DNA of 64,000 nucleotides from Cellvibrionaceae bacterium (GCA_050290265.1 JBNKHI010000010.1:16276-80275); one strand, 5' to 3'. Shown: positions 37,996 to 64,000, numbered from the stretch's first letter. Numbers and translations are program-made. The notes: generated by a model from the letters alone, not told the origin.

Positions 37996-38643
37996 CTACT
38001 CTGACCGGTACACTGAGCGGTTCATAAAAATCAGACGAGGGAAATTTTCAGTGGCATGGTGATACACATTAATTCGGCTGATACCGGCGTAGGGTATATC
38101 GATTCGGGTAACATGATTTAAATCCATATTTAATGCCCAACCAATTAACGCACGAATCGTCACACCATGTTGCACCAACAATAAATGTTTACCGCGATGT
38201 TGTTCCAGGAGCTGATCCAGAGCCGGTAACATACGTGCCTGAAGCTGCGCGATAGATTCACCATTGGGCGGCGACACATGTGCTGGATTATTATAAAAAG
38301 CTGCTACTGCCTCCGGATGCTGTTCACTGATGTGAGCGATATCCTGTCCTTCCCAATCACCAAAATGCATTTCTCTAAAGTCGTCCACAATATCCAGCGG
38401 CAATGCATATTCGTCAGCTTTCGTCTGCGCAAACAAACGGCAGCGCTGTAATGGCGAGCTCACAATATGCTGCCATGGTGGTGTATCCGTATGTCGGCAT
38501 TCACCTGCAAGCGCCTCATTCATTTGTTGCCAACCGCGCTCACTCAACAACACATCGGTACTACCGCGATAAATCTCACCGCCCTCACAAGTACCATGGC
38601 GTAATAAATCCAGCGTTGTTACCACGTCGGTTTGAGTTCTCAT
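37996..38643 (-). CDS. cobC: Histidine-phosphatase family; alpha-ribazole phosphatase
   Basis: LLRHGTCEGG...RGSTDVLLSERG and HGVTIRA. Located in the B12 operon. Confidence 0.8.
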   Translation of the reverse strand: MRTQTDVVTTLDLLRHGTCEGGEIYRGSTDVLLSERGWQQMNEALAGECRHTDTPPWQHIVSSPLQRCRLFAQTKADEYALPLDIVDDFREMHFGDWEGQDIAHISEQHPEAVAAFYNNPAHVSPPNGESIAQLQARMLPALDQLLEQHRGKHLLLVQHGVTIRALIGWALNMDLNHVTRIDIPYAGISRINVYHHATENFPRLIFMNRSVYRSE

Positions 38644-38693
38644 ATTGAACGCTCACTTTTTCAAAAATAAAGTCAGATTTATCGTTCCATCAT

Positions 38694-39473: not shown

Positions 39474-39491
39474 CTCTTCACAAGGAGTAGA

Positions 39492-42306: not shown

Positions 42307-42917
42307 TAAAAATCAACTCCTTTGCGCGCTTTAATACCAGCGTGATACGCATGCTTTATGTCTTTTACTTCAGATACCGTATCTGCAAGCGCCTGCAAAC
42401 CACTCCCGCCGCCACGCCCGGTCACTACAACACTCATCGAGGCCGGACGTTCACGCAAGGCTTTTAGAATAACCTCTTCTTCTAAATACTGATAACCGAT
42501 CATGTAGGTCAGTTCATCAAGTAATACCAAGTCGTAACTGGGATCTTTTAGCATACGTTCCGCCACAGCCCAGGTTCGCTCGGCGGCGGCAATATCACTG
42601 CTGCGATCTTGTGTATCCCAGGTAAAGCCTGTGCCCATCTGGTAAAAGTCTTGCGCCGGCAAATGCTTTTTCAAATACAGCTCTTCGCCGGACAATTGCA
42701 CACCTTTAATAAACTGCACAACGCCAACTTTTTGCTCATGGCCCAGAGCTCGCATCACCATACCAAAACCAGAAGTACTTTTACCTTTGCCGTTACCCGT
42801 CAGTAAAATAAACACGGCCTGATCTGCTGTTGCGGCGGCGATACCCGCATCAACCTTGGCCTTATGCTTTTCCATCTTCTTTTTATGAGTTGAATGTTTG
42901 TCACTATGATCGGACAT
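42306..42917 (-). CDS. cobO: Cob(I)yrinic acid a,c-diamide adenosyltransferase
   Basis: [38 protein letters not shown]. Confidence 0.92.
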
Positions 42918-42951
42918 ATCGTCTATTTCTCATGCAAAAAGTGAAGCCACA

Positions 42952-42983
42952 GCAGAGTTAACACGCACTGCGGTTAACTCTGC
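42952..42983 (-). terminator. Intercistronic 11-bp hairpin between btuB and cobO (possible partial terminator or stability element)
   Basis: gcagagttaac (42952-42962) / gttaactctgc (42973-42983). On the minus strand a UUUUU run follows about 10 nt later. Confidence 0.45.
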
Positions 42984-42996
42984 ACAGTCCAGGGCC

Positions 42997-44862: not shown

Positions 44863-44984
44863 AGGTCCTCAATTCAATAAAATTAAAATTGACCTACGAT
44901 CTAGAGAGGGAGCGTGGAATAGCCAGTGGACTGAAACTGCAGATTAATACCGCGCATCAACATTACGGTCTGGAAGCAGTAGTC

Positions 44985-45175
44985 AGAACCTCAAGAAATT
45001 TCACCGATGAAGCCCTCCGCAACATCGTAGTTCTGACCAGGCCGGTTCCGGACTCGTGACATGCATACGCACAATCACTTTACCGTTGCGGGGGCAGTGT
45101 TGGAATCACATACTTAGCGGTTATTACCGTTTAGCACGCATACCAAACTTCCCGTTTACCCCATCCCCTTTATCA
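44985..45175 (-). promoter_or_regulatory. Cobalamin (B12) riboswitch
   Basis: The minus-strand RNA contains AAACGGGAAGUUUGGU (45142-45157), GUGAUUCCAACACUGCCCCCGCAACGGUAAAG (45078-45109) and the B12 box GAGUCCGGAACCGGCC (45040-45055). Boundaries are approximate. Confidence 0.85.
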
Positions 45176-45405
45176 CAAACGTTAATGTGTAAATCACAGT
45201 CATAACGCTGCCTAAATGATGGGCACCTGAACAGAGTTGGCAGCCCCAAGCTTCTTACGACCCAGGTCTGCCAAGTGGCCTAGTATAAACAATCCACAGT
45301 CTAATTGCTCTTTGACTTTCACACTTTTTCCAAATACAGGATAATGCCCGCCCGTTAGCACCGACTAAACAATGCGTTACTGAAAGATATAAAAGAGAGT
45401 AAACC

Positions 45406-48127: not shown

Positions 48128-49093
48128 ATGCCAATGATATGCCTGAGAAAACTAACGCTACTACTCTCACTCGCACTACCCTGCCTGAATTCATTGGCGG
48201 CAGAACTGGTCCAATCAGACATCATCCTAAAGCCGTCAGAAATGCCCGGTGGCGAAATGACGCTAGAAAAATATCGCGCCTATATAAATCTCTTCAATCA
48301 CAAAGACCCCCGGTTTGCCGATTATTATCATGACACTATGGTATTTAAACGCAGTGAAGATGAAGTTCTGATTGGTAGAGACGCGGTCAAAGCTTTTTAC
48401 GCCGACGCCTGGACCCGCATAGATGAACGAGTATGGGAAGATGCCATAGCCATAGATAACAAAAATGGTGTCATGGCCGTTGATCTATCAGTTGAGTTGT
48501 TAGCAAAACAAGACCCCACACCAGACGCCAGTATCCGTTTAAAAAAAGGAGATCATTTGCTGCTGCGCGAGGTGCTTTTTTACAAACTTAAAGACGGCTT
48601 AATCACGTCACTGGATGCTCCCGATAACTACCGAATAATGACACCTGCCAATGGCGCCCCTTTGCCAGTGAATGAAGTAACCGAGTCTATTCCCCCTCTG
48701 CAGCGGGAATCACTGGAAGCCGCCTACGCAAAATATGCAGACTGTTTTAATCGGCAAATTGTCGAGTGCTTTTCAGATTTCTACAACCCGGATATCAAAT
48801 TTATCAGCGAAGTCCTGCCCACCATGCACAGCACGGAAGAAATCGTAAACTTCTACTTACCCGTGTGGAAACATTTAAAAGAAAACCTGGTAATTCACGG
48901 TTTCCGTTATGAAGGCAAGTGGATGTATGTTCAAGTATCCAACACGTTAACCGTCTTTGAAGATTATCCAGATTTTGTTGCCGGCCCATTGAAAAAAGGC
49001 GACAGGACAATTTCCGGAGAAGTGGCTTACGAAATCAAAAATGGACGCTTTGCAGCAGTGTATGACGGAATAGACCCAGCCAAGATGCAATAG
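48128..49093 (+). CDS. Exported protein with two NTF2/SnoaL-like halves (tentative)
   Basis: Signal peptide ...LALPCLNSLAAE. Two segments of about 140 aa have NTF2-like spacing. The assignment is weak. Confidence 0.6.
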   Translation: MPMICLRKLTLLLSLALPCLNSLAAELVQSDIILKPSEMPGGEMTLEKYRAYINLFNHKDPRFADYYHDTMVFKRSEDEVLIGRDAVKAFYADAWTRIDERVWEDAIAIDNKNGVMAVDLSVELLAKQDPTPDASIRLKKGDHLLLREVLFYKLKDGLITSLDAPDNYRIMTPANGAPLPVNEVTESIPPLQRESLEAAYAKYADCFNRQIVECFSDFYNPDIKFISEVLPTMHSTEEIVNFYLPVWKHLKENLVIHGFRYEGKWMYVQVSNTLTVFEDYPDFVAGPLKKGDRTISGEVAYEIKNGRFAAVYDGIDPAKMQ

Positions 49094-50730: not shown

Positions 50731-51960
50731 ATGAAAGGTCAACTGAAATTAAAACTGCCACTGCTTGCTATATGCTTATTGATTTCGACGCTATCACAAG
50801 CAGCTGGGTACCCTGCTCCACCCACCGATCCGTCACTACCCCCTTCAACGGTTGAACCGACGGTGCAACAATTGCGTCGCGCTATGCTTGATCAGGGCGT
50901 AAGCAGCCTGGCCATGCATAATATGGACGAACTTTTTACGACACGTATTGTTGGGCGGTCTGGTCCGGCCTGGAATTTACAGCGAGATGATCGGACACTG
51001 GATTTCACCTATGAATTTCAGGGGCAGATGTATACCCCTGACGAATTTCTGGAGCGTACTTACACCAATGCATTACTGATCATGAAAAATGGCAAGATTA
51101 TCTTTGAGAAGTACCGTAATCAAACAAATGAAACTACCCGGTTCATGGCATTTTCCATGACCAAGTCCATCACCTCTATTTTGATTGGTATAGCCCTCGA
51201 AGAAAAACGAATCGATTCTATTGATGATCCAATAGACAAATATTTACCGGAACTTTCGAAAAGCGGTTATGAGGGTGTGACCATCCGGCAAATTTTGCAA
51301 ATGCGTTCAGGTATTAATTACCCGGAGCGTTATGATTTTGGCAATCCCGGGATTGCAGCCACCAATCATGAAAATTCACTTGTATTAAATGTCACGCGTT
51401 TCGCAGATATAGCTCGCACGCTTAAACGCAAACATCCTCCTGGTAAAGTGTGGGAATATAAAACTATTGATACAGCGGTGCTGGGTTGGCTGCTGGAACG
51501 TGTTAGCGGTGGTAGTACCGTAGCAGCTTACACTTCACAACGCCTATGGGAACCACTTGGTGCTGAAGCCAATGGTTATTATATTATGGATGGCCCCCCA
51601 GATATCGGTCGTGAATTCAGCGGCGCAGGCTTTAATGCCACATTACGCGATTTTGCACGATTGGGACAAATGGTACTTAATGGTGGCGTAGCCAATGGTC
51701 ATCGCATAGTCTCAGAAAGGTGGCTAAAAGAATCCACTGCACCAACGGACAAGGCTGATCCCGTTTATGGCTACCAGTGGTGGATGGGGTTACGCCCCGG
51801 CTCTTTTGAAGCTTCGGGCTTGCTTGGACAGTATATTTTTATAGACCCAACTACCAACACTGTAGCGGTTAAACTAAGTTACTATCCACCAGGCGATATG
51901 GTGCCCCATCAAGAAACCCAGCACTTTCTGGCAGCAGTATCGGCTTGGTCACCCGAGTAA
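50731..51960 (+). CDS. Exported serine hydrolase (beta-lactamase/class C-related family)
   Basis: Signal peptide, SxxK motif (SMTKS) and a YxN-like region. Confidence 0.87.
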   Translation: MKGQLKLKLPLLAICLLISTLSQAAGYPAPPTDPSLPPSTVEPTVQQLRRAMLDQGVSSLAMHNMDELFTTRIVGRSGPAWNLQRDDRTLDFTYEFQGQMYTPDEFLERTYTNALLIMKNGKIIFEKYRNQTNETTRFMAFSMTKSITSILIGIALEEKRIDSIDDPIDKYLPELSKSGYEGVTIRQILQMRSGINYPERYDFGNPGIAATNHENSLVLNVTRFADIARTLKRKHPPGKVWEYKTIDTAVLGWLLERVSGGSTVAAYTSQRLWEPLGAEANGYYIMDGPPDIGREFSGAGFNATLRDFARLGQMVLNGGVANGHRIVSERWLKESTAPTDKADPVYGYQWWMGLRPGSFEASGLLGQYIFIDPTTNTVAVKLSYYPPGDMVPHQETQHFLAAVSAWSPE

Positions 51961-52217: not shown

Positions 52218-52772
52218 TTATTTACTTTTCTGCTTTTCTTTTTTTAGACGCGCGCGCAACCCGTCCAGAACGGAGCCCAAGGCAAAATCAAAAGCATTTT
52301 CATGATTATAATTAGGCTCTGCCCGATTAGCTCTCTCTAATTCATGATCTTCTCGAAGCTGCCAACCCATCATAAAACTTGTAAATAACTTGGAAGCATA
52401 CAGTGCTGTTTCAGGGCGAAACCCTGCATCAGTCAGCGGTTTAGAAATGAGATCTAGAGGTTCAATAGGTAATGACTCTGCTACGATCTTTGCCCCATCT
52501 CGGTATTTGCTAACAGCGGCAGCAGATTCTCTGGCAACGCGTTCTAACCACTTATCCCACTTTTCATTTTCTTCCACAGTCTGTAAAACGGGCAAAAGTA
52601 TTGCCGCTGCCATTTGGTCAGTTAATTCGCTCATACTTTTAAAATGTCGATATAATGCTGGCCCCTCTACACCCAACTCTTTCCCAAGTCGTCTTGTTGT
52701 TAATTTTTCAAAACCTATTTCATTCACAAGCTCCAAGGCTCTTTTAACAATAATTTCTCGATTTAGACGCAC
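52218..52772 (-). CDS. TetR family transcriptional regulator
   Basis: N-terminal HTH: IVKRALELVNEIGFEKLTTRRLGKELGVEGPALYRHF. Confidence 0.9.
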   Translation of the reverse strand: MRLNREIIVKRALELVNEIGFEKLTTRRLGKELGVEGPALYRHFKSMSELTDQMAAAILLPVLQTVEENEKWDKWLERVARESAAAVSKYRDGAKIVAESLPIEPLDLISKPLTDAGFRPETALYASKLFTSFMMGWQLREDHELERANRAEPNYNHENAFDFALGSVLDGLRARLKKEKQKSK

Positions 52773-53057
52773 GTCTTCTCCTTATACCTTATATTTTTGC
52801 CATTTCGAGTTACGCAAATATGTAGACACAGTGTTTACTTTATCGAACAATAAAAGCAAATACTTTTATCTATAGGATAATAGTATATCGACTTAAAAAA
52901 TCTAAGCGAATGATATTAAATGATTTTTTGAGTGAATCATTATGTTCTGTTAGTCCAGAATAGCCTCAGACTCAATTTCTACACTATCCGTTTTACGCTT
53001 TACTCCCTTCGCTGCATACGCTTGTCGCCCACAATAAAAGGTGCTAGCCTCGAAAAT

Positions 53058-53072
53058 GTTATCACTGATAAC
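53058..53072. promoter_or_regulatory. Perfect 7-1-7 palindrome, candidate operator (TetR or Fur-like)
   Basis: GTTATCACTGATAAC, about 95 nt upstream of the TonB-dependent receptor start. Confidence 0.5.
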
Positions 53073-53165
53073 TTGAAGCTGTATTTTATATACAAACCCC
53101 TTATGCCAAGCATTAAGTAAGGTTGAGACAGGGGAAAAACAACATAGATAACCTTGGGGAACCTC

Positions 53166-55652
53166 ATGAAAAAATGGCAAATTTGTTACGCAACACAGCG
53201 CACCAAAAATAGGCAACCAAGCAATATATCCAAGTCAATATTACCTTGCTTATTGATGGCTACCGTAAGCAATTTAGTAAGCGCGGAAACCGCAAAAGAA
53301 CAAGGGGCCATCCTCGAAGAAGTTTTCGTAACAGCACAATTCCGTAAGCAAAGTGTTCAAGAAACACCGATTGCCATCACCGCAGTGACAGGTGACATGC
53401 TGGAAGCCCGCATCCAAACAAATATTTTCGAAGTTTCGCGCCAAGCTCCAAACGTCACGTTAACGCCACAAGGGCAAGCCTGGGGGCCAGCAATGGTAGC
53501 GTTTATTCGAGGTGTTGGACAAAGTGATTTTATCTATGCACTTGAACCTGGCGTCGGTATTTACGTAGACGACGTTTACTATTCAACGCTAACAGGATCG
53601 CTGCTAGAACTTATGGATCTCGATCGTGTTGAAATTTTGCGAGGCCCACAGGGCACTCTAGCCGGTCGAAACTCAGTCGGGGGCGCCGTTAAGCTTTTTT
53701 CTAAAAAACCAACCGGAGAAGGTGTTGGCGACATCTCGGTTACTTATGGATCTTATGATCGATTAGATTTTAGCGGCAACTATGACTTTACAGTAGTGCC
53801 CGATAAATTATTTGCACGTATCTCGGGTATGTCTCAATCCAAAGATGGCTATATTAAGCGGGTCGACTATGGCTGCTCTCACCCTAGCTCAGGGGTTCCC
53901 ACTTTCGCCGTTGGTGATGGCTGCAATCTTGGAACACTCGGCGGTAAGTCACTAACTGCAGCGCGCTTGGCTTTACTATGGAATGCTTCAGATTCTGTTC
54001 AAGTCGATTTCAGCGCAGATATAACTAACGACCACTCTGAAGCTGGCGGCGACGTCTTACGCTATGCCAATGCAACCCAATCTATCGATGACGGAGACCC
54101 ATCTACTCCTGTAGTATTTTTGGATAATCGTTTTGTAGCTTATGGACCAAACGCAGGCGATCCAAATGGAAGCAATCCATACATTACCTATTCCACATTC
54201 ATGGATCCGAATCAGCCTACAGCAAGCCTACCTTATAGCCCTCATTCATTGGCGCCTATTCAATACTTTGAAGGAAAAGGTTTTTCCACCGCTATTAATT
54301 GGGAGATCTCTGAAAATTTTGAGCTCAACTCAATAACAGCCTATCGTGAATATGAAACAAAATTTACAGAAGATGCAGATGGCTCTCCCATTCATGGGCA
54401 ACTTGCCTATCAACAATTAGAACACGAGCAATACAGTCAGGAGTTAAGATTAAACGGAACAGTTGCAGACGGCGAAGTAGATTTCACGGCCGGCTTGTTT
54501 TGGTTCCAATCTGATGGTGTATTTCGCGGACGATTTTCATTGCCCTACCTGCCTGCAGACTTTATTCACCCAGGCGATCCTTCTAGTAACGACTCACAAG
54601 CCGTCTTTTTAAATTCTACATGGCACGCTACTGATCGCATGAATATTTCAGCGGGCATACGCTATTCCAAAGATGAAAAATCCTACCGGTTTTTCCGCCG
54701 CAATCCCGATGGAACAATCCCTTCAATACCTTGTGGCGCGCCACCACAAGCGCCAAACTGCTCGCAATTTGGTTTAGACAATCAACCTAGTGGTTTTGAT
54801 GGTGACAATACTGACTGGCGTATAGCCCTTGATTACTCGGTAAATGAAGACATCTTAGTATATGGCTCTGTTTCAACAGGGTATCGTGCCGGCGGTATAA
54901 ACCCACGTCCATTTTTTGGCCCTGGATCAATCCTACCGGTGAACGGAAACTCTATTGATTTTATCAATGGCATACCTATAGACGTCAACCAAATAGGTCC
55001 CTTTGAGCCAGAAACTCTAACTGCCTATGAAATTGGCGCAAAGATGGATTTACTAGATAAAACCTTGCGACTCAATATGTCCGCTTTTCGAAATGATTAC
55101 GAAGACATTATTTTAAATTTACAGTTCTGCCCTATTTTTTGCTTTAAGCCAACTAATGTTGGTACTGCAGAAGTATCGGGCTTTGAAGTTGAATTACAGT
55201 ATTACCCAACATCCAAGCTATCTATCGATGCATCCTTCAGTAAGTTAGATTTTCAATACACAGAGACCGATTTTTCACGCACATTTGTTTCCAAAGATAT
55301 GACGTCTCCATTCACACCGGATACCCAAGCAAGCTTAGGTATTCAATTTGATTTTTATACTGGTCCAGCAGGCACACTAACAGGACGAATAGATACCTCC
55401 TATCAATCCAAAATGTTTGCAGAAGCAATTAACGCTACGAACAACAAAATTGATGGCTATACGTTAACCAACCTCCATTTCATGTGGATATCACCTGATG
55501 AATCATGGTCAACCTCGTTAGAGGGCATCAACATAGCCGACACTTACTACGAGCTAAGCCGCTTTGATCAGTCTAACGGGCCTGCGCAAACGGTTACCGC
55601 AAATCCTGGCACCCCCCGAACGTGGGCTATAAAAATTAAGCACCAGTTCTAA
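53166..55652 (+). CDS. TonB-dependent receptor (non-siderophore type)
   Basis: TonB box/plug (LEEVFVTAQFRKQSVQETPIAITAV, IRGVGQSDF, RVEILRGPQGTLAGRNSVGG), a 22-strand-size barrel and terminal HQF. Start at the ATG with a GGGGA RBS. Confidence 0.92.
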   Translation: MKKWQICYATQRTKNRQPSNISKSILPCLLMATVSNLVSAETAKEQGAILEEVFVTAQFRKQSVQETPIAITAVTGDMLEARIQTNIFEVSRQAPNVTLTPQGQAWGPAMVAFIRGVGQSDFIYALEPGVGIYVDDVYYSTLTGSLLELMDLDRVEILRGPQGTLAGRNSVGGAVKLFSKKPTGEGVGDISVTYGSYDRLDFSGNYDFTVVPDKLFARISGMSQSKDGYIKRVDYGCSHPSSGVPTFAVGDGCNLGTLGGKSLTAARLALLWNASDSVQVDFSADITNDHSEAGGDVLRYANATQSIDDGDPSTPVVFLDNRFVAYGPNAGDPNGSNPYITYSTFMDPNQPTASLPYSPHSLAPIQYFEGKGFSTAINWEISENFELNSITAYREYETKFTEDADGSPIHGQLAYQQLEHEQYSQELRLNGTVADGEVDFTAGLFWFQSDGVFRGRFSLPYLPADFIHPGDPSSNDSQAVFLNSTWHATDRMNISAGIRYSKDEKSYRFFRRNPDGTIPSIPCGAPPQAPNCSQFGLDNQPSGFDGDNTDWRIALDYSVNEDILVYGSVSTGYRAGGINPRPFFGPGSILPVNGNSIDFINGIPIDVNQIGPFEPETLTAYEIGAKMDLLDKTLRLNMSAFRNDYEDIILNLQFCPIFCFKPTNVGTAEVSGFEVELQYYPTSKLSIDASFSKLDFQYTETDFSRTFVSKDMTSPFTPDTQASLGIQFDFYTGPAGTLTGRIDTSYQSKMFAEAINATNNKIDGYTLTNLHFMWISPDESWSTSLEGINIADTYYELSRFDQSNGPAQTVTANPGTPRTWAIKIKHQF

Positions 55653-55786
55653 ACCATGAACCTTTATTAGTACGCAAGCACCTTCGATCCCAGAAAGAGA
55701 ATGTGGCTTTTTCCAGGACCGCAGATTAAGAACTTATATGCTAAATCTACAACTGATATTAAACCCAATACAGGTTCGGTCAAAGT

Positions 55787-56704
55787 ATGTTTTTAAGATC
55801 AATAAAAATTAAGTATCTAACAACTAGCATAACATTGATGACTCTTGCTTCAGTTGCTTTCGCGCAGTCAACTGAAACACCCACTACATTCTCTCAAGGT
55901 TTTGCGGGTGCGAGCGACGCGGACAGCGCTAGCGAAGGATTGGCGTTAAAAGGATCGCCCGACAAACCCAATCAAGACCCTAGAGATTTCAATGGGTTAT
56001 GGAAGCCCGGAGTAACACCTAGAAGAACACCATTAAAAACACTAGACGATGCATTCACACTGGAAGAACCACCATTAACTAAACGTGCTCAGGATTTTGT
56101 GCGGATGATACGAAGCAAACGTGAAAAAGGGTTTCTGCCTAGTCTGTCTACCCACGCATGTCGTTCGCCCGGTGTTTATACGCAGCTATTCCCCGCATTT
56201 GTGATAGGTGTCATTCAAACTGATGAAGCCATGTTTCAGCTCTTTGAGCTGCCGCGTCTAGTTAGAAAAATACACATTGGTGAAAATTTTCCCAAACACA
56301 TAGAACCTAGTTATGTGGGCTACTCCATTGGACACTGGGAAGGCGACACGCTCGTGGTCGAAACCAAAGGTTATAACGGACTTGGTGAACTAGACATTAC
56401 AGGAGCGCCTGTGAGTAAAAACACTCGTATGTATGAGCGTTATACAAAAGCCAAGAATGGAAAACACATTAACATATCTATCAAGGTAGAAGATCCTGAG
56501 TATCTCACTGAGCCTCTGGAAGTCGAACGACAATGGGTATCGTCATACGGCACTCAACACGGTGAATATGATTGCGAAGAAAGCCCTAGAGAAGACATGG
56601 AAGGACACACTTATTACTACGAAGACCTCTACGTTCCTGTCTGTGTCCGTAAGCAAGGCAAAGGCACCGAGCCTTCCAAAGTCGTTTGCAATTATCAACC
56701 ATAA
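55787..56704 (+). CDS. Exported 4-Cys protein, paralogue X1 (unnamed family)
   Basis: Signal peptide ...SVAFA/QS. Motifs DPRDFNGLWKPG, ACRSPG, GHWEGDTLVVETKG, EDPEYLTEP. Aligns along its whole length with 58461-59387. Confidence 0.8.
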   Translation: MFLRSIKIKYLTTSITLMTLASVAFAQSTETPTTFSQGFAGASDADSASEGLALKGSPDKPNQDPRDFNGLWKPGVTPRRTPLKTLDDAFTLEEPPLTKRAQDFVRMIRSKREKGFLPSLSTHACRSPGVYTQLFPAFVIGVIQTDEAMFQLFELPRLVRKIHIGENFPKHIEPSYVGYSIGHWEGDTLVVETKGYNGLGELDITGAPVSKNTRMYERYTKAKNGKHINISIKVEDPEYLTEPLEVERQWVSSYGTQHGEYDCEESPREDMEGHTYYYEDLYVPVCVRKQGKGTEPSKVVCNYQP

Positions 56705-56754
56705 AAACATCAATAAATCTTAATGGAAATGCAGAATCAGGGTTGGCGTACAAA

Positions 56755-57255
56755 ATGATAGAAACGTTGAGAAACATAGGCTTATATCTGGCAGAAACGG
56801 GCTTAAGCACGACTCTAAATGCTACTGCATGGGCAGCCCCCCTATTACAGACAATTCACATTATTTTTGTATGTGCAGTAATGATCAGCATGCTTTTAGT
56901 TAATTTAAGAATACTTAATGTATTTTCAAAAAATAAGTCAATACAATTTATCTCCCGCCACTTTCACCCTTGGATTTGGTATTCACTACCAATTTTATTG
57001 GTGACGGGATCTTTACTAATTATCACCGAACCAGGGCGTTCAATTACCAACCCAGCCTTTATATTAAAAATGGCTTTGTTCATTACAGCCATCTCACTTA
57101 CTTTCCTTCAGCAGCTAGTAATAAGAAGAGAGTATGAACACAGTGAAACTTTCAATACAACAACAATAGAAAAATACATATCTATTTTTTTGATAGCTTG
57201 CTGGTCCTCTATCGTTTTCTGTGGAAGGTGGATAGCTTACATTTTGAGCTGGTAA
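56755..57255 (+). CDS. 4-TM inner-membrane protein, paralogue M1 (possibly DUF6644-like)
   Basis: Four hydrophobic helices, a conserved His in TM1 (LLQTIHIIFVC) and C-terminal GRWIAYILSW. Paralogue of 59426-59923. Confidence 0.75.
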   Translation: MIETLRNIGLYLAETGLSTTLNATAWAAPLLQTIHIIFVCAVMISMLLVNLRILNVFSKNKSIQFISRHFHPWIWYSLPILLVTGSLLIITEPGRSITNPAFILKMALFITAISLTFLQQLVIRREYEHSETFNTTTIEKYISIFLIACWSSIVFCGRWIAYILSW

Positions 57256-57281
57256 CTTTATTAATTTTTTTGGAGAAACTT

Positions 57282-57731
57282 ATGTCACTTAAACGTTTAT
57301 TTCTTGCATCCATAGTTTTCGCTATGTCTTCAGAAGCATTTTCCCATCATTCAACGGCTGAGTTTGATTACAGCAAAGATATTCTTATCGAAGGCCAAAT
57401 TGTAGAGGTTCAATGGATGAATCCACATTCCTTTATTGAGGTTTTGGCACCCGGAAAAGATGGAGCTGAAGCAGTACGCTGGTCTATTGAGTTTGGATCA
57501 CCCAACATTAATCGCCGCATGGGCTGGAAGAAGACATCACTAAAAAGTGGCGAGAAAGTTATTATTCACTTAGCTCCGACTCGAGATGGAAAACCCAGAG
57601 GAACCTTGAGAACGGTAACCAAAGAAGATGGAAAGGTACTACACGGCTTAGCCGGCCTAACAAAATCAGATGACAAAGGCGCACCGCTCATAAACAAAGA
57701 TGCGGTTAAAACAATCAGCGAAAAATACTAA
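57282..57731 (+). CDS. DUF6152-like exported protein (mature N-terminus predicted His-His-Ser)
   Basis: GGAGAA RBS. Signal peptide MSLKRLFLASIVFAMSSEAFS followed by HHSTAEFD, then W.NPHS. Confidence 0.8.
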   Translation: MSLKRLFLASIVFAMSSEAFSHHSTAEFDYSKDILIEGQIVEVQWMNPHSFIEVLAPGKDGAEAVRWSIEFGSPNINRRMGWKKTSLKSGEKVIIHLAPTRDGKPRGTLRTVTKEDGKVLHGLAGLTKSDDKGAPLINKDAVKTISEKY

Positions 57732-57741
57732 GGGGATAAAC

Positions 57742-58455
57742 GTGAAAAACAAATCGAGCATAAAGAAAAATATTATTGCCATTGTCCTCTTAGGTTTTTG
57801 CAGCCAGGTTTTATCTAGCACTGAAAGTTTAAAAAAAAATATCAATGGAATCTGGGTAGTTGAAAACTCTACCACTAAGATTCTAACAGTAGAAAACAAA
57901 ATCCCACCACTGAATGAAGAGGGAGAGGAAATTTACGAAGAGCATAATAGAAAATATAAGGACGATGACCGGTCATTCGACAGGACTACCTGGTGTGCTT
58001 CACCAGGTTATCCCAGACTAATTCTGGCTAATCATCCGTTTGAAATTGCCGTCAGTAATCGACGTGTCGCTTTTATGTCATCTTGGGCAAATTGGTATCG
58101 AACGGTTGATATGAGTGGAGAGACCTGGGCGATTCCTGAAGAATATTCTAGCGTTGGCGTAGCTCTAGGGCGATGGAATGCAGACACGCTAGTTATTGAA
58201 ACAACTGGCTTGAAATCTGATGTTGTGATGGACCAATACGGACTACCTGTGTCATGGGCTATGAAAATAACAGAACACATCAAGTTACTGTCTAAAAATA
58301 GACTTGAAATACGTTTTGTAATTGAAGATCCCGAGTACTACTCGAAACCCTGGGAAATGATTAAGACATTCAAAAGAATGGAAACCAATCATGTGCAGGA
58401 ATACATATGCCTAGATGAAATTAAAAAGGGCCACCCCCCATTGATAGAGGGTTAA
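57742..58455 (+). CDS. Exported 2-Cys protein, short paralogue Xs of the X family
   Basis: GTG start behind an AAGGGG RBS. Motifs INGIW, WCASPGYP, GRWNADTLVIETTG, EDPEYYSKPW. Confidence 0.78.
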   Translation: MKNKSSIKKNIIAIVLLGFCSQVLSSTESLKKNINGIWVVENSTTKILTVENKIPPLNEEGEEIYEEHNRKYKDDDRSFDRTTWCASPGYPRLILANHPFEIAVSNRRVAFMSSWANWYRTVDMSGETWAIPEEYSSVGVALGRWNADTLVIETTGLKSDVVMDQYGLPVSWAMKITEHIKLLSKNRLEIRFVIEDPEYYSKPWEMIKTFKRMETNHVQEYICLDEIKKGHPPLIEG

Positions 58456-58460
58456 TTGAA

Positions 58461-59387
58461 ATGGCGGATATACTCCCATTAAATAAATATATCGGCACGA
58501 TTGGCATTGTGGTGAGCCTGTTTGCGCAATCAACACTTAGCTTTGAAGTTAACCCTCAAGCATTCTCTGGTGGCCCCGATGCTGATGATACGACCTTACT
58601 CGAAAACCCAGAAGGATATGGGATGCTGGGACCCAAAGAAACGCCCAGCGCAGACCCGAGGGATTTCAACGGTCTTTGGCGTCCAGGGGCAACGCCAAGG
58701 AAGACACCGTTGAAATCGGTAAACGATGTATTCGCATTGGAAGATATTTCACTCACCCCCTATGCGGAAAAGATCACCAGAATGATCACTAAAATTAGGG
58801 ACGAAGGTAGTCCTGTTCAACTGTCGTCTACCGCTTGTCGTTCGCACGGTATAGCAACAGCGTTATTCCCTTCATTTGTCATGGCCATCGTCCAGAACGA
58901 CCACAACGTCATGATTATGTATGAGCAGCCACGTTACATTCAAAAAATTCGCCTTAATAGAAAACATCCAAAAAATCTAGAACCGTCTTATGGGGGGCAT
59001 TCAATAGGTCACTGGGATGGGAATACCCTGGTTGTAGAGACGGTTGGGTTTAATGGCTTAGGAGAGCTGGACATTAGTGGCGCCCCAGTAAGTGAAAATG
59101 CAAAAATGATTCAAAAAATCACTAAATCAGAAAACGGAACGGTACTAAACCTTCAAGTCACAATAGAGGATCCCTTTTATTTAACCGAACCCGTTGTTGT
59201 TGATCGTCGCTGGATTTGGACTAATGGCATTCAGCAAGGTGAATTCGATTGTGAGGAAAACCCCCGCGAAGATATGAATAATGAAACGTTCTACATTGAA
59301 GATCTTTACAAGCCCCTATGTGTCAGGATCGAAGGTAAAGGAGCAGAACCCTCAAGGGTGGTCTGTGACAAACTGGGAAAAATTTAA
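58461..59387 (+). CDS. Exported 4-Cys protein, paralogue X2
   Basis: DPRDFNGLWRPG, ACRSHG, GHWDGNTLVVETVG, EDPFYLTEP. Cys positions match X1. Confidence 0.8.
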   Translation: MADILPLNKYIGTIGIVVSLFAQSTLSFEVNPQAFSGGPDADDTTLLENPEGYGMLGPKETPSADPRDFNGLWRPGATPRKTPLKSVNDVFALEDISLTPYAEKITRMITKIRDEGSPVQLSSTACRSHGIATALFPSFVMAIVQNDHNVMIMYEQPRYIQKIRLNRKHPKNLEPSYGGHSIGHWDGNTLVVETVGFNGLGELDISGAPVSENAKMIQKITKSENGTVLNLQVTIEDPFYLTEPVVVDRRWIWTNGIQQGEFDCEENPREDMNNETFYIEDLYKPLCVRIEGKGAEPSRVVCDKLGKI

Positions 59388-59425
59388 ACACAACAGTCAT
59401 ATCAAATTTAATTGATTGGAGAAAA

Positions 59426-59923
59426 ATGATGATAGTAGCGGCCTTTCAATGGTTGAAGGAATCTACGCTGGGAATTTTTATGGCGGAAAATGAATTTGCT
59501 TTTCCCTGGATTGAATGCATTCATGTTATAGCGTTGTGTATTACCGTAGGTTCGATCCTGTTGCTCGACTTTCGTTTATTAGGTCTCGCCTATAAACACT
59601 GGTCGTTAAAAGACATGAGTCAGAGTCTACTACCAGTGACATGGTGGGCTTATGCCGTCGCACTCGTTACCGGCATCTGCCTGTTATCATCAAATGCTCT
59701 GGCCTATCTTGCCAATCCAGCGTTTTTGTTAAAAATGACCTTTATGGCTATTGCCGGCATAAATATGCTTTTATTTCATTTTGTGACCAACAAAAACATT
59801 TCGGACATTGACCATATTACTGATTTATCGCTTTCAGCGCGTATAGCAGGAGGCGTTTCATTTTGCTGCTGGATTACGGTGGTTGGTGCAGGTCGCTGGA
59901 TCGGTTTTATTAGCCCTTGGTAA
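59426..59923 (+). CDS. 4-TM inner-membrane protein, paralogue M2
   Basis: WIECIHVIALC and C-terminal GRWIGFISPW. Same topology as M1. Confidence 0.8.
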   Translation: MMIVAAFQWLKESTLGIFMAENEFAFPWIECIHVIALCITVGSILLLDFRLLGLAYKHWSLKDMSQSLLPVTWWAYAVALVTGICLLSSNALAYLANPAFLLKMTFMAIAGINMLLFHFVTNKNISDIDHITDLSLSARIAGGVSFCCWITVVGAGRWIGFISPW

Positions 59924-59932
59924 TGGAGCGTA

Positions 59933-60127
59933 ATGACCACACAACCCAACAATGATTCAACGCTAAAGCTAAGAAAGAACCTTGATGATGCTCTTTCCTG
60001 CACGCCTACATTTTATCCTGAACACCTAAAAATCCTGAACAGGCATAAAGGTCATACCTATTGTTGCCCCGCGTTTTTTCAAACTCGCAATAACCCATTC
60101 AAAAAATCTGTCGTTGACTACGATTGA
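59933..60127 (+). CDS. Possible small ORF at the end of the TBDR operon (64 aa)
   Basis: The ATG lies 6 nt after a GGAGCG motif and 9 nt after the M2 stop. No family recognised. Overlaps the convergent gene by 10 nt. Confidence 0.3.
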   Translation: MTTQPNNDSTLKLRKNLDDALSCTPTFYPEHLKILNRHKGHTYCCPAFFQTRNNPFKKSVVDYD

Positions 60128-61215
60128 GAATTATCGGTACCGGACTGAGTACGCTGATAGGTTCGAAGTATTCGGTGGATAAAACTAAGTTTATTGCGTA
60201 CTGCGGGCACAAGAATAAAGGGGTAAAGATCTGGCTGGCCCATACTGCGATTTAGACTGTTAACTGCAAAGGTCAGCGGTAAATGTTGTTCAATTATCTC
60301 GCTGAAGTCGTCGTGTTCAAACGGATTAATCGTAATGGCAACGGCCAGTGAAGCGTTTTTATTCGCCTGCGGATGCAGTTGTATACCGAACTGATGGGCG
60401 GTCTCCATAGTGTCGACAATATGAAAATAGTGCGCCCAGGTTTCAGCCCAGTCTTCCCAGGGATGCGACGACGCATAAACGCTGACAAAATTGTCGCGCC
60501 AGTTTGGTAAAGGGCTTTGATAATGCTTTTGCAAGGCTGCAGCATAATCTGCGCGTTCGTCACCAAACAGCCGCCGGCACTCTTCCAGTCTTTCAGGGTA
60601 GGGAAAAATGAGCTGGTCCCAATAGTAGTGTCCAACTTCATGACGAAAGTGCCCGATCAATGTGCGATAAGACTCACTTAGGTCTTCGCGCCGCTGTTCG
60701 CGTTCCGCTGAACTGGCTTCGGCAGCATTGATGGTAACCTGCCCCATGGAATGCCCAGTCATGGTTTGCGCATTGTGAGGAACGGCATCTTTTTCAGAAA
60801 TAAAATCAAACGCCAATCCATTTTCCGGGGCGTCATGTTTACTTTGCACGGGCAAATTTAAACGCAACAACCCATACACTAAACGGTGCTTGGCAAATTC
60901 AAGTTTCTGCCAGGCTTCGCGTTGTTCGATTTTTTCCAGATTTGGGATATGACGATTAAGTTCACAGGCAATACAGTATTTGTCGTCGCCATCGACTAAC
61001 CAGTTACAAACGCCATGTTGGAAGTTGTCACAATACCGCCAGACTTTGGCTGGCGACGACGTATCCATCAGCGCCTGCCAGCCGTTGTTAATTGGCTTCA
61101 GGGTGCTAAGTTCGAGTAACTCTGAAAGAAACCCCAGGCTTGAGCCACACCGTTCGCATCGAGTATTTTCAAACAGCACAGTTTGCGAGCATTGCTGGCA
61201 ACTATAAATTTTCAT
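60118..61215 (-). CDS. Zinc-ribbon plus putative zinc metallopeptidase domain protein
   Basis: N-terminal CQQCSQ...CERCG zinc ribbon and an HEVGH metal-binding motif. Confidence 0.82.
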   Translation of the reverse strand: MKIYSCQQCSQTVLFENTRCERCGSSLGFLSELLELSTLKPINNGWQALMDTSSPAKVWRYCDNFQHGVCNWLVDGDDKYCIACELNRHIPNLEKIEQREAWQKLEFAKHRLVYGLLRLNLPVQSKHDAPENGLAFDFISEKDAVPHNAQTMTGHSMGQVTINAAEASSAEREQRREDLSESYRTLIGHFRHEVGHYYWDQLIFPYPERLEECRRLFGDERADYAAALQKHYQSPLPNWRDNFVSVYASSHPWEDWAETWAHYFHIVDTMETAHQFGIQLHPQANKNASLAVAITINPFEHDDFSEIIEQHLPLTFAVNSLNRSMGQPDLYPFILVPAVRNKLSFIHRILRTYQRTQSGTDNSQS

Positions 61216-61260: not shown

Positions 61261-62475
61261 TTACGTATTCGCTTTAATCGCCCCCAGTAGCTTATACGCT
61301 AACAATACACAGGCGATCACTGCAATCACTTCCGCAAACAAACTAAATACGCCGCCCAGACTAAAATACTCGAGAAAGGGCGATACCAGAACGGGGGACA
61401 TAAACTGTCCAAAAAACAGGAACGACGTGAGCGTACCAATTGCCAACCCTAAATGCTCTTTACTGACGATTGCCATGCATAAGGAAACACCCAGTGGCAT
61501 CAGTATACCCAGCCCGGTTCCCGCAAAGGCCAGTCCCACGACTGCCATGGCAAAACTATCGGCATGCCCGACAATAAACATTCCGATACTAAGATTGACC
61601 ATAATCCATACTAACGCTAGTAAGCCGCCGAGCAGATTCATTAATCGACGAAAGAATAACGCGCCCATAGACGAGAAAAATGCCATACAGGCCAGTGCCA
61701 TACCGGCTTTTGCTGCGCCCAAACCAATCTCGCCAAACAGGAACGGTAGTTGCACTGGCAACACGTAGTAGATCATGGCCATACCCATAACCATCAGATA
61801 GATACGCAGTAGCAGCCATTTCGACGTTTTTTTAGCGGGATGACTTGCCTCGCCGTTCGTCTCTGGCGCTGGCTGGCGACTGCGAAACTTGCGCCCTCCC
61901 GTTTCACGAACAAAACCGGCAAAGCCGACGAAGAGTAAAAACCCCAAGCTATACAGGAAAAATGGCAGCCGCCAGGAGATTTCTGCCAATATGCCGCCCA
62001 GGCTGAGTATCACTATCCCGCCCATACTCATAGCCGTGCTTTGCAAACCTAAAAAGCGTTGCCGTGCCTGGCCCTCAAACAAATCTCCGGCAATAGTCGT
62101 GAGTGCGGTCATCAGGCCGGCAATAAAAATACCCAAAAGTGCTCTGCTGGCCAGAATCCAATAGAGCGAGTCCATAAAGTAGCCTGCGGTACCAGCACAG
62201 CCACAACCCAGGCTTGATAACAACAGCATAGGCCAACGGCCGTAACGATCTACCAAACTGCCCATCACAAAGGAACAGAGAGCAATCGCCAATGATGGAA
62301 TCGTAATCACGAGTTTCACTAATAACTCGGCGTTTGGCACATCCGCAAAATGCTGCCCCATGCCGGCAATACCTGGGGCAATGGCCAGCCCCCCCATCAC
62401 AGTCAACATGCTGCCAAACAGCAAGGCGATATTACGATAACGTTCAGTTGGGTTTTTAAACATGGGGGAACTCAA
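61261..62475 (-). CDS. MFS transporter
   Basis: 404 aa with 12 TM helices. The loop 2-3 motif is GSLVDRYGRW. Confidence 0.87.
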   Translation of the reverse strand: MSSPMFKNPTERYRNIALLFGSMLTVMGGLAIAPGIAGMGQHFADVPNAELLVKLVITIPSLAIALCSFVMGSLVDRYGRWPMLLLSSLGCGCAGTAGYFMDSLYWILASRALLGIFIAGLMTALTTIAGDLFEGQARQRFLGLQSTAMSMGGIVILSLGGILAEISWRLPFFLYSLGFLLFVGFAGFVRETGGRKFRSRQPAPETNGEASHPAKKTSKWLLLRIYLMVMGMAMIYYVLPVQLPFLFGEIGLGAAKAGMALACMAFFSSMGALFFRRLMNLLGGLLALVWIMVNLSIGMFIVGHADSFAMAVVGLAFAGTGLGILMPLGVSLCMAIVSKEHLGLAIGTLTSFLFFGQFMSPVLVSPFLEYFSLGGVFSLFAEVIAVIACVLLAYKLLGAIKANT

Positions 62476-62596: not shown

Positions 62597-64000
62597 TTAA
62601 AAGCCCACTTGCACTGATTTGGTTTCGGTATAGGCGAGCAATCCATCCAAGCCACCTTCACGACCAATACCAGATTGTTTGAAACCTCCAAAAGGTCGCG
62701 GCGCATCACTGGCACCCCCACCGTTGATAGTAATCAAACCGGCGTCGATACGACGGGCCAAACCGTGCGCGGCGCGCAGGTTGCGGGTCCAGATTTTAGC
62801 CGCAAGACCATATTCAGTATCGTTTGCTGTCGCTGCGATTGCTTTCAAATCATTTGCGTCATCAAACCGCAGTACCGTCAATACAGGCCCGAAGATCTCA
62901 TCCTTATGCACAGCCATGTCTGCGGTTACATTGGTTAGTACCGTAGGTTGTACGAAGTAACCTGGCACATCAATGCGCTCGCCACCGCACGCCAGGGTCG
63001 CACCGGCTTGCTGACCGTCAGCGATATAGCTGAGTACCCGCTGCAACTGCCCTTCTGAAATAATGGGCCCCATCTGGCTGCCCGAGGCTGTACCGGGGGC
63101 AGGCTTGATGTTGTTAAAAATAGCGACAATTTTATCCACCAGTGCATCATGCACATCGTTGTGTACTAACAAACGGGTGCCGGCCGCACAAAACTGACCC
63201 GTTTTAAAGCATAGCTCACGTGCAATACCCGCTGCAGCGGCATCAAGATCTGCATCTGGCATCACGATGATTGGCGATTTACCGCCCAGTTCCAATGTCA
63301 CGCGTTTCATATTGCCGGAAGCGCCTTCCAGAATAGAACGACCAACACGAGTAGAACCGGTAAAAGACACTTTGTTGATATCGGGATGATCAACAATGGC
63401 CTGCCCAGCATCCGCACCAAAACCCGTAACAATGTTGACGACGCCTGGCGGAAAGCCAACTTCGTCGATAAATTTAGCCAAGCGCAGTGCTGACAAGGGC
63501 GCCAGTTCCGCAGGCTTAACCACTACCGTACAGCCTGCTGCCAAAGCAGTACCCATTTTGTTCAACACCATCAAAAACGGTGCATTCCAGGGCGTGATCG
63601 CACCAACCACACCAACAGGCTGGCGCATCGTGTAAGTCATAAACTCTGCATCAATTGGAGTCGTGGGCACATCACCAGCAACCTTGCCTATCCAGCCGGC
63701 ATTGCTGCGCAGGTTATTAACTGACATGGGAATATCTACATGCTGGATTTGAGCGATGGGATTACCACCATCAAGGGATTCTATAATGGCTAATTCGTCT
63801 TGATTGGCCATAATTACGTCCGCCAGCTTGTGCAACAGTGCGGCACGTGTTTGAAAATTCATGCTCGCCCAAGGGCCTTCTTCAAACGCAGCCCGGGCTG
63901 CTTGCACAGCGCGATCGATATCCTCGGCATTACCTTTAGCCACTGTCGCCAGGTGCTCGCCAGTGGAAGGATTCAGCACTTTGAAGGTTTCACCGGAAAT
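62597..64000 (-). CDS. NAD(P)-dependent aldehyde dehydrogenase (5' end lies beyond the window)
   Basis: ELGGKSP, FKTGQFCAAGTR (catalytic Cys), EIFGPV. The frame stays open upstream of the listed Met to the window edge. Confidence 0.9.
   Translation of the reverse strand: MSGETFKVLNPSTGEHLATVAKGNAEDIDRAVQAARAAFEEGPWASMNFQTRAALLHKLADVIMANQDELAIIESLDGGNPIAQIQHVDIPMSVNNLRSNAGWIGKVAGDVPTTPIDAEFMTYTMRQPVGVVGAITPWNAPFLMVLNKMGTALAAGCTVVVKPAELAPLSALRLAKFIDEVGFPPGVVNIVTGFGADAGQAIVDHPDINKVSFTGSTRVGRSILEGASGNMKRVTLELGGKSPIIVMPDADLDAAAAGIARELCFKTGQFCAAGTRLLVHNDVHDALVDKIVAIFNNIKPAPGTASGSQMGPIISEGQLQRVLSYIADGQQAGATLACGGERIDVPGYFVQPTVLTNVTADMAVHKDEIFGPVLTVLRFDDANDLKAIAATANDTEYGLAAKIWTRNLRAAHGLARRIDAGLITINGGGASDAPRPFGGFKQSGIGREGGLDGLLAYTETKSVQVGF

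Follow-up and report, generated by a model that had tools for sequence, protein, structure and literature searches.

A TonB-dependent receptor locus of a Cellvibrionaceae bacterium as a variant of a widespread DUF6152, X and DUF6644 cassette: a possible periplasmic redox module

A locus at positions 52218-60127 of a 64,000-nucleotide (nt) stretch of DNA from a Cellvibrionaceae bacterium (GCA_050290265.1, JBNKHI010000010.1:16276-80275; this whole stretch is referred to as the window) encodes a TonB-dependent receptor (TBDR) followed by exported and inner-membrane proteins, and comparison with other genomes identifies it as a minority variant of a cassette whose canonical form is X-DUF6152-Ma-Mb-class II cytochrome c, where X is an exported protein and Ma and Mb are paired DUF6644 membrane proteins; in this variant a receptor and extra X copies are added and the cytochrome is absent. 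An earlier note, made from the sequence of the window, had likened the locus to an uptake pathway. The locus is real, and its gene content and paralogies are confirmed as described there; its overall make-up suggests a periplasmic metal or redox module more than an import pathway. Our reading, which is tentative and held with less than even confidence, is that the receptor feeds a periplasmic redox module in which DUF6152 would carry a metal centre, X would hold the ligand and the Ma/Mb pair would act as an electron conduit rather than as a permease. We arrived at a redox module because of the invariant free N-terminal histidine of DUF6152, the cytochrome c, the HemJ-like character of the M proteins and a genomic context rich in oxidoreductases and in regulators of organic-compound metabolism.

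The arrangement given in the earlier note, seven tightly spaced plus-strand genes following a divergent TetR gene, was borne out by the coordinates, with intergenic gaps of 134, 50, 26, 10, 5 and 41 nt from the receptor to M2 and with three X genes in the order X1-Ma-D-Xs-X2-Mb after the receptor (D stands for DUF6152). Our listing of open reading frames (ORFs) and the gene calls of assembly GCA_050290085.1 (contig JBNKGZ010000007.1) give the same genes, and the translations display the signal peptides or the four hydrophobic segments that had been claimed for the products. The features are as follows.

50731-51960, plus strand: exported serine hydrolase of the beta-lactamase family, 409 amino acids (aa), upstream of the TetR gene (Pfam Beta-lactamase, E = 1.6e-42)
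52218-52772, minus strand: TetR-family regulator, divergent from the receptor gene (Pfam TetR_N, E = 2.5e-11, and TetR_C_1)
52891-52933, no strand assigned: candidate operator, an inverted repeat between the TetR and receptor genes with two 12-nt arms that are 92% complementary and 19 nt apart
53166-55652, plus strand: TonB-dependent receptor of the outer membrane, 828 aa (Pfam Plug and TonB_dep_Rec_b-barrel)
55787-56704, plus strand: X1, exported, modelled as a calycin/FABP-like barrel, 305 aa, 4 Cys
56755-57255, plus strand: M1 (Ma), DUF6644 four-helix inner-membrane protein, 166 aa (PF20349)
57282-57731, plus strand: DUF6152, exported, modelled as an OB (oligonucleotide/oligosaccharide-binding) fold, 149 aa (PF19649), with a predicted mature N-terminus His-His-Ser
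57742-58455 (237 aa), or from 57700 (251 aa), plus strand: Xs, shorter and divergent X paralogue
58461-59387, plus strand: X2, second long X paralogue, 308 aa, 4 Cys
59429-59923, plus strand: M2 (Mb), DUF6644 four-helix inner-membrane protein, 164 aa (PF20349)
59933-60127, plus strand: ORF of 64 aa, probably not a gene

The canonical cassette was recovered from two independent seeds, X and M2. With the X profile, a search of GTDB genomes, one for each species, yielded at least 557 relatives, from which 80 loci of Acidobacteriota, Gemmatimonadota, Alpha- and Gammaproteobacteria were kept and their genes mapped with hidden Markov models (HMMs) built here. Most of these loci have X and DUF6152 side by side or as a fusion, two or more X genes are common, and DUF6644 always occurs as two adjacent genes, the Ma/Mb pair staying together throughout. 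Look-ups seeded with M2 in annotated contigs of Bradyrhizobium and of soil metagenomes revealed the order X-DUF6152-Ma-Mb followed by a protein of 155-173 aa with a C-terminal CxxCH motif, and a metagenome scan seeded with Mb added 80 further loci with the same order; the X-seeded and Mb-seeded sets are not phylogenetically independent, and their neighbouring genes were clustered on crude ORF calls. Where at least 1.6 kb of sequence was available on both sides of the Ma/Mb pair (n = 18), DUF6152 and X were each found in 18/18 loci and cytochrome c in 12/18, and none of the 18 contained a receptor detectable with our receptor HMM, which finds only receptors related to that of the window. The receptor is not a core part of the cassette. 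The earlier note had suggested a check on co-occurrence of the X, M and DUF6152 families with TonB-dependent receptors: co-occurrence is very strong among the three families themselves, and a receptor of the window type adjoins X/DUF6152 in four other proteobacterial loci. The arrangements fit a physically coupled periplasmic pair of DUF6152 and X that is joined variously to a receptor, to Ma/Mb (usually with cytochrome c), or to both.

The cassette cytochrome carries its CxxCH motif at the C-terminus, has, towards the N-terminus of the mature protein, a Met that at least 90% of members conserve, and matches Pfam Cytochrom_C_2 weakly, features that would fit a low-spin class II electron carrier. 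The window contains X, DUF6152 and the Ma/Mb pair and lacks the cytochrome, the HMM of which has no match anywhere in its 64 kb. The possible 64-aa ORF at the end of the locus, which the earlier note had listed, was discarded: it is absent from the assembly gene calls, has no match in Pfam or NCBIfam and no relative in about 90 related loci, and, since it contains no CxxCH, is not a leftover of the cytochrome c found after Mb elsewhere.

Several further arrangements of these genes were encountered. A Novosphingobium metagenome-assembled genome (L010) has the order X-X-TBDR-D-Ma-Mb, and plasmid pTomTYG65a of Sphingobium sp. TomTYG65 (L095) carries TBDR-Ma-Mb convergent with D-X-D-X within a sulfonate-utilisation cluster, which includes an alkanesulfonate monooxygenase, a sulfonate-binding protein, tauD, a peroxiredoxin and further monooxygenases. 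In the close relatives of the window locus (X1 53-56% identical) the order X1-(Ma)-D-Xs-X2 is kept and is preceded by the hydrolase and TetR genes, with no receptor. The Sinorhizobium meliloti Ak57 replicon labelled pSymB (3.7 Mb; L094, 5606-6471) encodes DUF6152 and a single M-like gene, annotated as 'DUF2214 domain-containing', with no X; the coordinates of the two genes touch, and the pair lies between cysH/cysD and betA. The cysH neighbourhood in S. meliloti and the sulfonate cluster in Sphingobium hint at a possible link to sulfur limitation. On an ENA scaffold (scaffold_962_c1; L179, 5485-8605) Ma-Mb occurs without X or DUF6152 and is followed by a BPSS1818-family (PF07077) protein and an MFS transporter, and the M pair can therefore have other partners. 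Unannotated neighbours of 388-431 aa were considered as outer-membrane channels that might replace the receptor; this idea found no support, one of them having weak PAS matches and the other being GH39-like.

The DUF6152 protein of the window matches PF19649 with 110.3 bits against a cut-off of 27 (E about 5e-32 to 8e-32), and H22, H23, N47, P48 and H49 are invariant in the family alignment, with a conserved Trp beside the His of the NPH motif. Among 123 non-identical DUF6152 domains, the two histidines directly follow a predicted A/V/L-x-A cleavage site in every case (123/123), and the W-x-N-P-H motif is present in 121. The conserved His is thus residue 1 after the predicted cleavage, as in CopC, YcnI and the lytic polysaccharide monooxygenases (LPMOs); the fold differs from the cupredoxin- or immunoglobulin-like beta-sandwich of those proteins, DUF6152 being modelled as an OB fold (AlphaFold2, predicted local distance difference test (pLDDT) score 87), with Foldseek matches to OB folds such as SSB and the LysRS N-domain. 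No PDB sequence matches DUF6152. Fusions of DUF6152 and X are common (about 336 aa), and DUF6152 is N-terminal to X in all 16 that were aligned, so that its N-terminus stays free.

The X proteins form a very large exported family for which neither Pfam nor NCBIfam has a model. X1 and X2 are 52% identical and each contains 4 Cys in translation, as had been reported, and Xs proved to be the third, shorter paralogue that it had been taken for (28% identical to X1, E = 1e-13), with 2 Cys in its mature form. X1, X2 and Xs have no match in Pfam or NCBIfam, no PDB sequence matches X1 or the X profile, and a comparison of 61 X members with Pfam at E values up to 1 returned noise only, without a match to YceI. 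Among 1.84 billion proteins the X profile finds 21,517 representatives at E <= 1e-3, these being clusters at 50% identity, and 13,421 at E <= 1e-10, and the family occurs across Acidobacteriota, Gemmatimonadota and Alpha-, Beta- and Gammaproteobacteria. Many of the top matches are proteins of 450-530 aa with two X domains in tandem, which mirrors the X-X gene pairs of many loci; such fusions are seen among the X family ids P0272-P0421. The AlphaFold2 model of X1 (pLDDT 83) retrieved CRABP, FABP or P2 proteins as at least its top 30 PDB matches in Foldseek (E about 1e-3, target-normalised template-modelling score 0.55-0.6, root-mean-square deviation 6-7 Å), a marginal resemblance on which X is tentatively modelled as a calycin/FABP-like barrel. 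X1 keeps the residues conserved in the family (C125/C263, G178, W184, D236, E154, E217, R218 and E260), and Xs is without several of them (the equivalents of Q144, E154, S180 and E185); genes for 218-224 aa without a Pfam match hold the position of Xs in close relatives. The split between X1 and X2 is old, because orthologues of X2 at 61-70% identity (P0014-P0018) co-occur on contigs with X1-like genes in some cases.

Both M proteins belong to DUF6644 (PF20349, cut-off 27 bits), M1 with 44.6 bits (E = 3.7e-11) and M2 with 37.9 bits (E = 2.5e-9), and M2 has 1,421 homologues. The earlier note had seen in X1/M1 and X2/M2 an internally duplicated module. The paralogy stands, M1 and M2 being 26-28% identical (E = 6e-16); the duplication within the locus does not, because M1 is 35-39% identical to the first DUF6644 gene of the pairs in Bradyrhizobium, Novosphingobium and two metagenome contigs and M2 is 40-45% identical to the second gene of such pairs elsewhere, identities across genomes that exceed the one between M1 and M2. 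They are thus orthologues of an ancient Ma/Mb pair, and this orthology, together with the old split of X1 and X2, rules out a recent tandem duplication of an X/M unit. Ma and Mb probably form a heterodimer.

The M proteins have four hydrophobic segments and invariant H35 (in helix 1), R52, G85, K105, W150, G157 and R158 (M1 numbering), the helix-1 His, one Lys and two Arg being invariant in both Ma and Mb. Lys and Arg average 3.7 in loop 1 and 3.6 in loop 3 versus 1.1, 0.85 and 0.1 elsewhere, and by the positive-inside rule the N-terminus, loop 2 and C-terminus are therefore predicted to be periplasmic, which would place the His, Lys105 and Arg158 in the periplasmic leaflet. Of 33 members compared with Pfam, 32 match DUF6644, and below threshold 22 match DUF2214, 13 UPF0093/HemJ (PF03653, best E = 0.0045) and 4 CopD (PF05425, E <= 1), the CopD score of M1 itself being 17.2 bits against a cut-off of 32.1. 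Alignment of the M profile with Escherichia coli YebZ by hhalign gave a probability of 0.4%, which is a weak test with a single-sequence template, and a better CopD profile could not be derived from the plasmid matches of YebZ, nearly all of which are PcoD proteins of near-identical sequence. Membership of M in CopD was rejected on the grounds of the Pfam cut-off and the missing YebZ alignment. PepSY_TM, Ni_hydr_CYTB and transporter families are likewise without a match in the M proteins, and no PDB sequence matches the M profile. Basic residues beside the M His would be better placed to meet haem propionates than to line a cation path, and a site that faces the periplasm, with a cytochrome c as frequent neighbour, suggests a cofactor or hand-over site and not a permease. 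These features, along with the sub-threshold likeness to DUF2214, HemJ and CopD, speak against M as the means of inner-membrane passage in an uptake pathway.

The receptor is unambiguous as a family member, with Pfam scores of 56.7 bits for Plug (cut-off 23.9, E = 3.8e-15) and 145.9 bits for the barrel (cut-off 27, E = 4.3e-42) and a TonB-box-like EEVFVTA just after its signal peptide. None of the NCBIfam equivalogs for siderophore, haem, B12, PqqU or copper receptors reaches its cut-off (best TIGR01783, 141 versus 223.5 bits), and solved receptor structures align with it in the plug only. Receptors that match the window receptor HMM at E < 1e-200 adjoin X/DUF6152 in four proteobacterial loci (L005, L010, L041 and L071), and the receptor of the Sphingobium TBDR-Ma-Mb locus is 26% identical to that of the window (E = 1e-54). 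Iron regulation was rejected, no Fur-box-like site having risen above background; the best site agreed at 11/19 positions, and 438 sites of the window scored at least as well.

As for the regulator, the cassette of close relatives is flanked by TetR_N/TetR_C_1 genes, and that of a Novosphingobium humi plasmid by a TetR/AcrR gene; a phmmer search found no relative of the window TetR in about 90 more distant loci. TetR was therefore ruled out as a universal partner, being conserved in close relatives and appearing again on one plasmid. The exported serine hydrolase placed just upstream by the earlier note is indeed there, and its nearest solved structures are the class C beta-lactamase-related serine hydrolase 8rlj (E = 1e-53) and the 6-aminohexanoate-dimer hydrolase NylB (E = 2e-42), which makes it similar to amidases and esterases of the NylB type. 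Two close relatives have a hydrolase homologue of 404-406 aa directly upstream of the X1 orthologue and beside a TetR gene; the hydrolase is a lineage-specific partner of the cassette, and it and TetR are conserved in close relatives only.

The surroundings of the cassette in other genomes are rich in oxidoreductases. Pyrroloquinoline quinone (PQQ) dehydrogenases are represented by 17 genes in 13 of the 80 X-seeded loci, with 8 lying no more than 120 nt from X or D. In six loci of Gemmatimonadota, Longimicrobiales, Vicinamibacterales and Acidobacteria (L034, L057, L072, L075, L076 and L082) a PQQ dehydrogenase-X-X-DUF6152 array is convergent with cytochrome c-Mb-Ma, and PQQ dehydrogenases also abut X in L038, L062, L067 and L077. 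Other recurrent neighbours are acidobacterial TonB-like outer-membrane proteins and molybdopterin dehydrogenases, and in the annotated contexts esterases, short-chain dehydrogenases/reductases, monooxygenases and alcohol or aldehyde dehydrogenases are found nearby, with regulators of the TetR, AraC, MarR and GntR types. No copper gene and no copper-, iron- or zinc-responsive regulator was present in the annotated contexts examined, and the neighbour clusters that recur across the 80 X-seeded loci contained neither copper-homeostasis genes nor regulators responsive to metals. This context favours oxidation of organic substrates over metal homeostasis. Supply of lanthanides or of the PQQ cofactor was considered, given how often PQQ dehydrogenases are neighbours, and ruled out, in view of the DYD motif (linked with lanthanide use) being present in 4/17 of the PQQ dehydrogenases, of His ligands being unsuited to lanthanides and of the canonical cassette being without a PQQ dehydrogenase.

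In the mechanism proposed here, the TonB-dependent receptor would admit a small compound, probably a hydrophobic organic one, to the periplasm, where the exported NylB-like serine hydrolase may act on it first and the calycin barrels of X would hold it. DUF6152 would provide a metal centre at its free His-His N-terminus and W-x-N-P-H loop and would work in complex with X, the likeliest metal being copper in a histidine-brace-like site. Ma and Mb would together form a heterodimeric 2x4-helix membrane anchor, the periplasm-facing His/Lys/Arg site of which probably holds haem b, as in HemJ, and this anchor would exchange electrons with the DUF6152-X pair, via the class II cytochrome c where one is present. 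The inner-membrane proteins would in this way serve a periplasmic oxidation or reduction, and TetR would sense the substrate or the product. The analysis itself shows the gene content, the conserved cassette, the fusions and the invariant residues, along with fold and topology predictions; which metal and which substrate are involved, the presence of haem, the way in which electrons flow and any catalysis are inferred. A more specific version, which we consider rather unlikely, is that DUF6152-X constitutes a new class of periplasmic mononuclear copper (histidine-brace-like) oxidoreductase on an OB-fold and calycin scaffold, which would receive electrons from a haem-b Ma/Mb pair and the class II cytochrome c, act on small hydrophobic compounds, deliver its products to neighbouring PQQ or molybdopterin dehydrogenases and obtain its substrate, in the window, via the TonB receptor.

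A number of observations weigh against a redox module. Cofactor binding and catalysis are predictions, and we know of no histidine-brace redox centre built on an OB fold. What relates M to HemJ, DUF2214 and CopD is in every case a score under the Pfam cut-off, the Foldseek match of X is marginal at E about 1e-3, and the X family conserves acidic residues, one Arg and a disulfide pair, with no His, Met or obvious catalytic residue. Cytochrome c is missing from the receptor-linked loci of the window, Novosphingobium (L010) and Sphingobium (L095), and the electron partner there would have to be DUF6152 itself or a product encoded elsewhere; three other loci (L005, L041 and L071) have TBDR-D-X(-X) with no M pair within 10 kb. 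Co-transcription is likewise a prediction from gene spacing only; promoter and terminator scans were uninformative.

The chief alternative, possible though doubtful in our estimation, is the capture and hand-over of a metal, most likely copper, in the manner of CopC/CopD or YcnI/YcnJ. The receptor would import the metal or a chelate of it, the His-His of DUF6152 would bind it and pass it to the helix-1 His of Ma/Mb, for import or for the loading of a membrane enzyme, while X would bind the chelator or be an adaptor and the cytochrome c, where present, would reduce Cu(II) for release. The invariance of the mature N-terminal His is consistent with this scheme, as is the modelled OB fold of DUF6152, which is also that of the periplasmic metallochaperone CusF. 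The translationally coupled S. meliloti pair of DUF6152 and a single M-like protein resembles copC-copD, the recurrence of receptor adjacency would suit metal import, and 4/33 M members reach CopD below threshold. It was reasoning from an N-terminal His that led to the Cu(II) site of YcnI, a cupredoxin-fold protein in which a Trp cushions the copper, and such ligands are also known in CopC, LPMOs and particulate methane monooxygenase (pMMO) (PMC8424229); the Trp beside the NPH motif of DUF6152 offers a parallel to that of YcnI (PMC8424229). The CopD domain of YcnJ needs a transmembrane His, and in YebZ the equivalent residue is important for the uptake of copper (PMC13344008); M has a conserved His in helix 1. 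On the other hand, the contexts examined contain neither copper genes nor metal-responsive regulators, those present being TetR- or AraC-type, the window has no Fur box, and the M profile did not align with YebZ. Invariant Lys and Arg next to the M His would be unusual for a cation site, X, which is the most abundant component, is left without conserved soft-metal ligands or a clear role, and the role of the cytochrome is not explained.

An import pathway for a hydrophobic organic nutrient, which would elaborate the uptake pathway to which the earlier note likened the locus and in which X (with DUF6152) would ferry the compound from the receptor to Ma/Mb as the permease, appears improbable to us. 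It would account for a receptor, exported proteins and membrane proteins in one co-directional cluster, the modelled FABP-like fold of X suits hydrophobic ligands, and TetR and the exported hydrolase are conserved in close relatives. As that note had observed, the cluster holds no ABC, MFS or TRAP gene by Pfam or annotation, nor is there a Peripla_BP, FecCD or ABC_tran component within 52218-60127, and the btuB-btuCDF cluster of the same window shows what parts are missing. These proteins, however, are small, with four helices and no transporter similarity, and their conserved residues lie at the periplasmic face and not across the membrane; import also leaves unexplained a canonical cassette without a receptor and with a cytochrome c, the N-terminal His-His of DUF6152 and several receptor-X-D loci without M. 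Very improbable, in our judgement, is a role in tetrapyrrole or haem handling, whereby the receptor would import haem or a porphyrin, DUF6152 (as a CcmE-like OB protein) and X would bind it, and HemJ-like Ma/Mb would oxidise it or pass it on. Such a role draws on the UPF0093/HemJ matches in 13/33 M members, one DUF6152 member with a weak CcmE match (E = 0.029), a partial match of the receptor to the TonB-hemin model of NCBIfam (E = 1.8e-23, far under the cut-off) and the X barrel, which can be compared with the known haem-binding calycins. All of these similarities are sub-threshold, however, with no haem-uptake or haem-degradation genes nearby and no Fur box, and a free N-terminal His that never varies would sooner chelate a metal ion via the amino terminus than serve as an axial ligand of haem.

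Whichever reading is adopted, the cassette is new in composition, because its three core families have no characterised member and no described system is known to be so composed. No paper on DUF6152, DUF6644, PF19649 or PF20349 was found among 7.7 million PubMed Central (PMC) papers and 0.34 million bioRxiv preprints, in which DUF2214 receives one passing mention in each of two papers, and searches of Pfam, NCBIfam, the PDB and this literature gave no characterised member for X, DUF6152 or DUF6644, in line with what the earlier note had stated for the non-receptor components. YcnI, CopC and LPMOs were recognised as copper proteins by features like the His-His N-terminus of DUF6152, the invariance of which makes a new metal site on an OB fold directly testable. 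Four-helix proteins of the DUF2214/HemJ/CopD-like kind are poorly understood, and the Ma/Mb pair offers a way into them. The cassette is present in tractable bacteria, including Sinorhizobium meliloti, Bradyrhizobium, Azospirillum and Novosphingobium, and genetics and biochemistry are therefore feasible. If it is redox-active, it would represent a new periplasmic electron-transfer module in soil and marine carbon turnover; if it handles a metal, it would be a new metal-trafficking route between the outer and inner membranes.

Other regions of the window also deserve mention. A complete cobalamin salvage and uptake cluster (36964-45199, minus strand) lies behind a cobalamin riboswitch (45024-45199; 34.1 bits, gathering score 31.5) and comprises a btuB-like TBDR (42997-44862), cobO, cobQ, btuC (FecCD), btuD (ABC), a cobC-like phosphatase and btuF (Peripla_BP_2). 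An exported SnoaL_2 protein of 321 aa with a signal peptide is encoded shortly before the hydrolase (48128-49093, plus strand), its gene flanked by those for an MFS transporter and an MscS channel; the length of the protein suggests two SnoaL-like halves; SnoaL_4 proteins flank X/DUF6152 genes in locus L003. Convergent with M2 is a gene for a putative zinc metallopeptidase with a DZR_6 Zn-ribbon and a Peptidase_Mx domain (60118-61215, minus strand), beyond which an MFS transporter (61261-62475) and an aldehyde dehydrogenase (62597-63979) follow. Far from the locus, a 543-aa DUF6119 protein (4989-6620, minus strand; E = 2.8e-134) is followed by a 339-aa protein without a Pfam match, in a region otherwise made up of housekeeping genes (signal peptidase, pyruvate kinase, zwf and edd).

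Known systems resemble the locus in part. HemJ (UPF0093) is a four-helix protoporphyrinogen oxidase in which a conserved helix-1 His ligates haem b, and M is similar to it in size and four-helix layout and has an invariant helix-1 His; unlike HemJ, M is an obligatory Ma/Mb pair with periplasmic partners, matches that family below threshold and has no tetrapyrrole-biosynthesis genes nearby. E. coli YceI/YceJ consists of a periplasmic lipocalin-like, isoprenoid-binding protein and a cytochrome b561 membrane protein, and thus offers the same combination of a calycin-type barrel encoded with a small four-helix membrane protein that is, or in our case may be, a cytochrome b, although no sequence relation was found and the cassette has DUF6152 and cytochrome c in addition. 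FoxB (PepSY_TM) and FpvG are receptor-linked inner-membrane reductases of imported ferric siderophores, and a small membrane protein beside a TonB receptor that binds haem (predicted for M) and acts on cargo in the periplasm would be comparable to them, whereas M has no PepSY_TM match, Fur box and siderophore genes are absent nearby and the receptor stands outside the canonical cassette. Canonical TonB uptake loci, of which the btuB-btuCDF cluster at 36964-45199 is an example, also place a receptor ahead of exported and membrane proteins in one cluster; in the locus described here the periplasmic and membrane parts belong to uncharacterised families, and binding protein, permease and ATPase are missing.

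CopC/CopD and YcnI/YcnJ (Pseudomonas syringae, E. coli YobA-YebZ and Bacillus subtilis) pair a small, exported, beta-rich protein with an N-terminal His and a multi-helix membrane protein with a required His (PMC8424229, PMC13344008), a layout that DUF6152 with Ma/Mb repeats. They differ in that YcnI is a cupredoxin whereas DUF6152 is modelled as an OB fold, that M falls under the CopD cut-off, that the cassette adds X and cytochrome c and that it has no copper genes nearby. The histidine-brace copper oxygenases, such as LPMO and the CuB site of pMMO (PMC8424229), are built on a beta-sandwich in contrast to the modelled OB fold of DUF6152, and catalysis in the present case is only proposed; DUF6152 has, by prediction, the free N-terminal His of these enzymes, and the external electrons that they need could come from the membrane pair and the cytochrome c.

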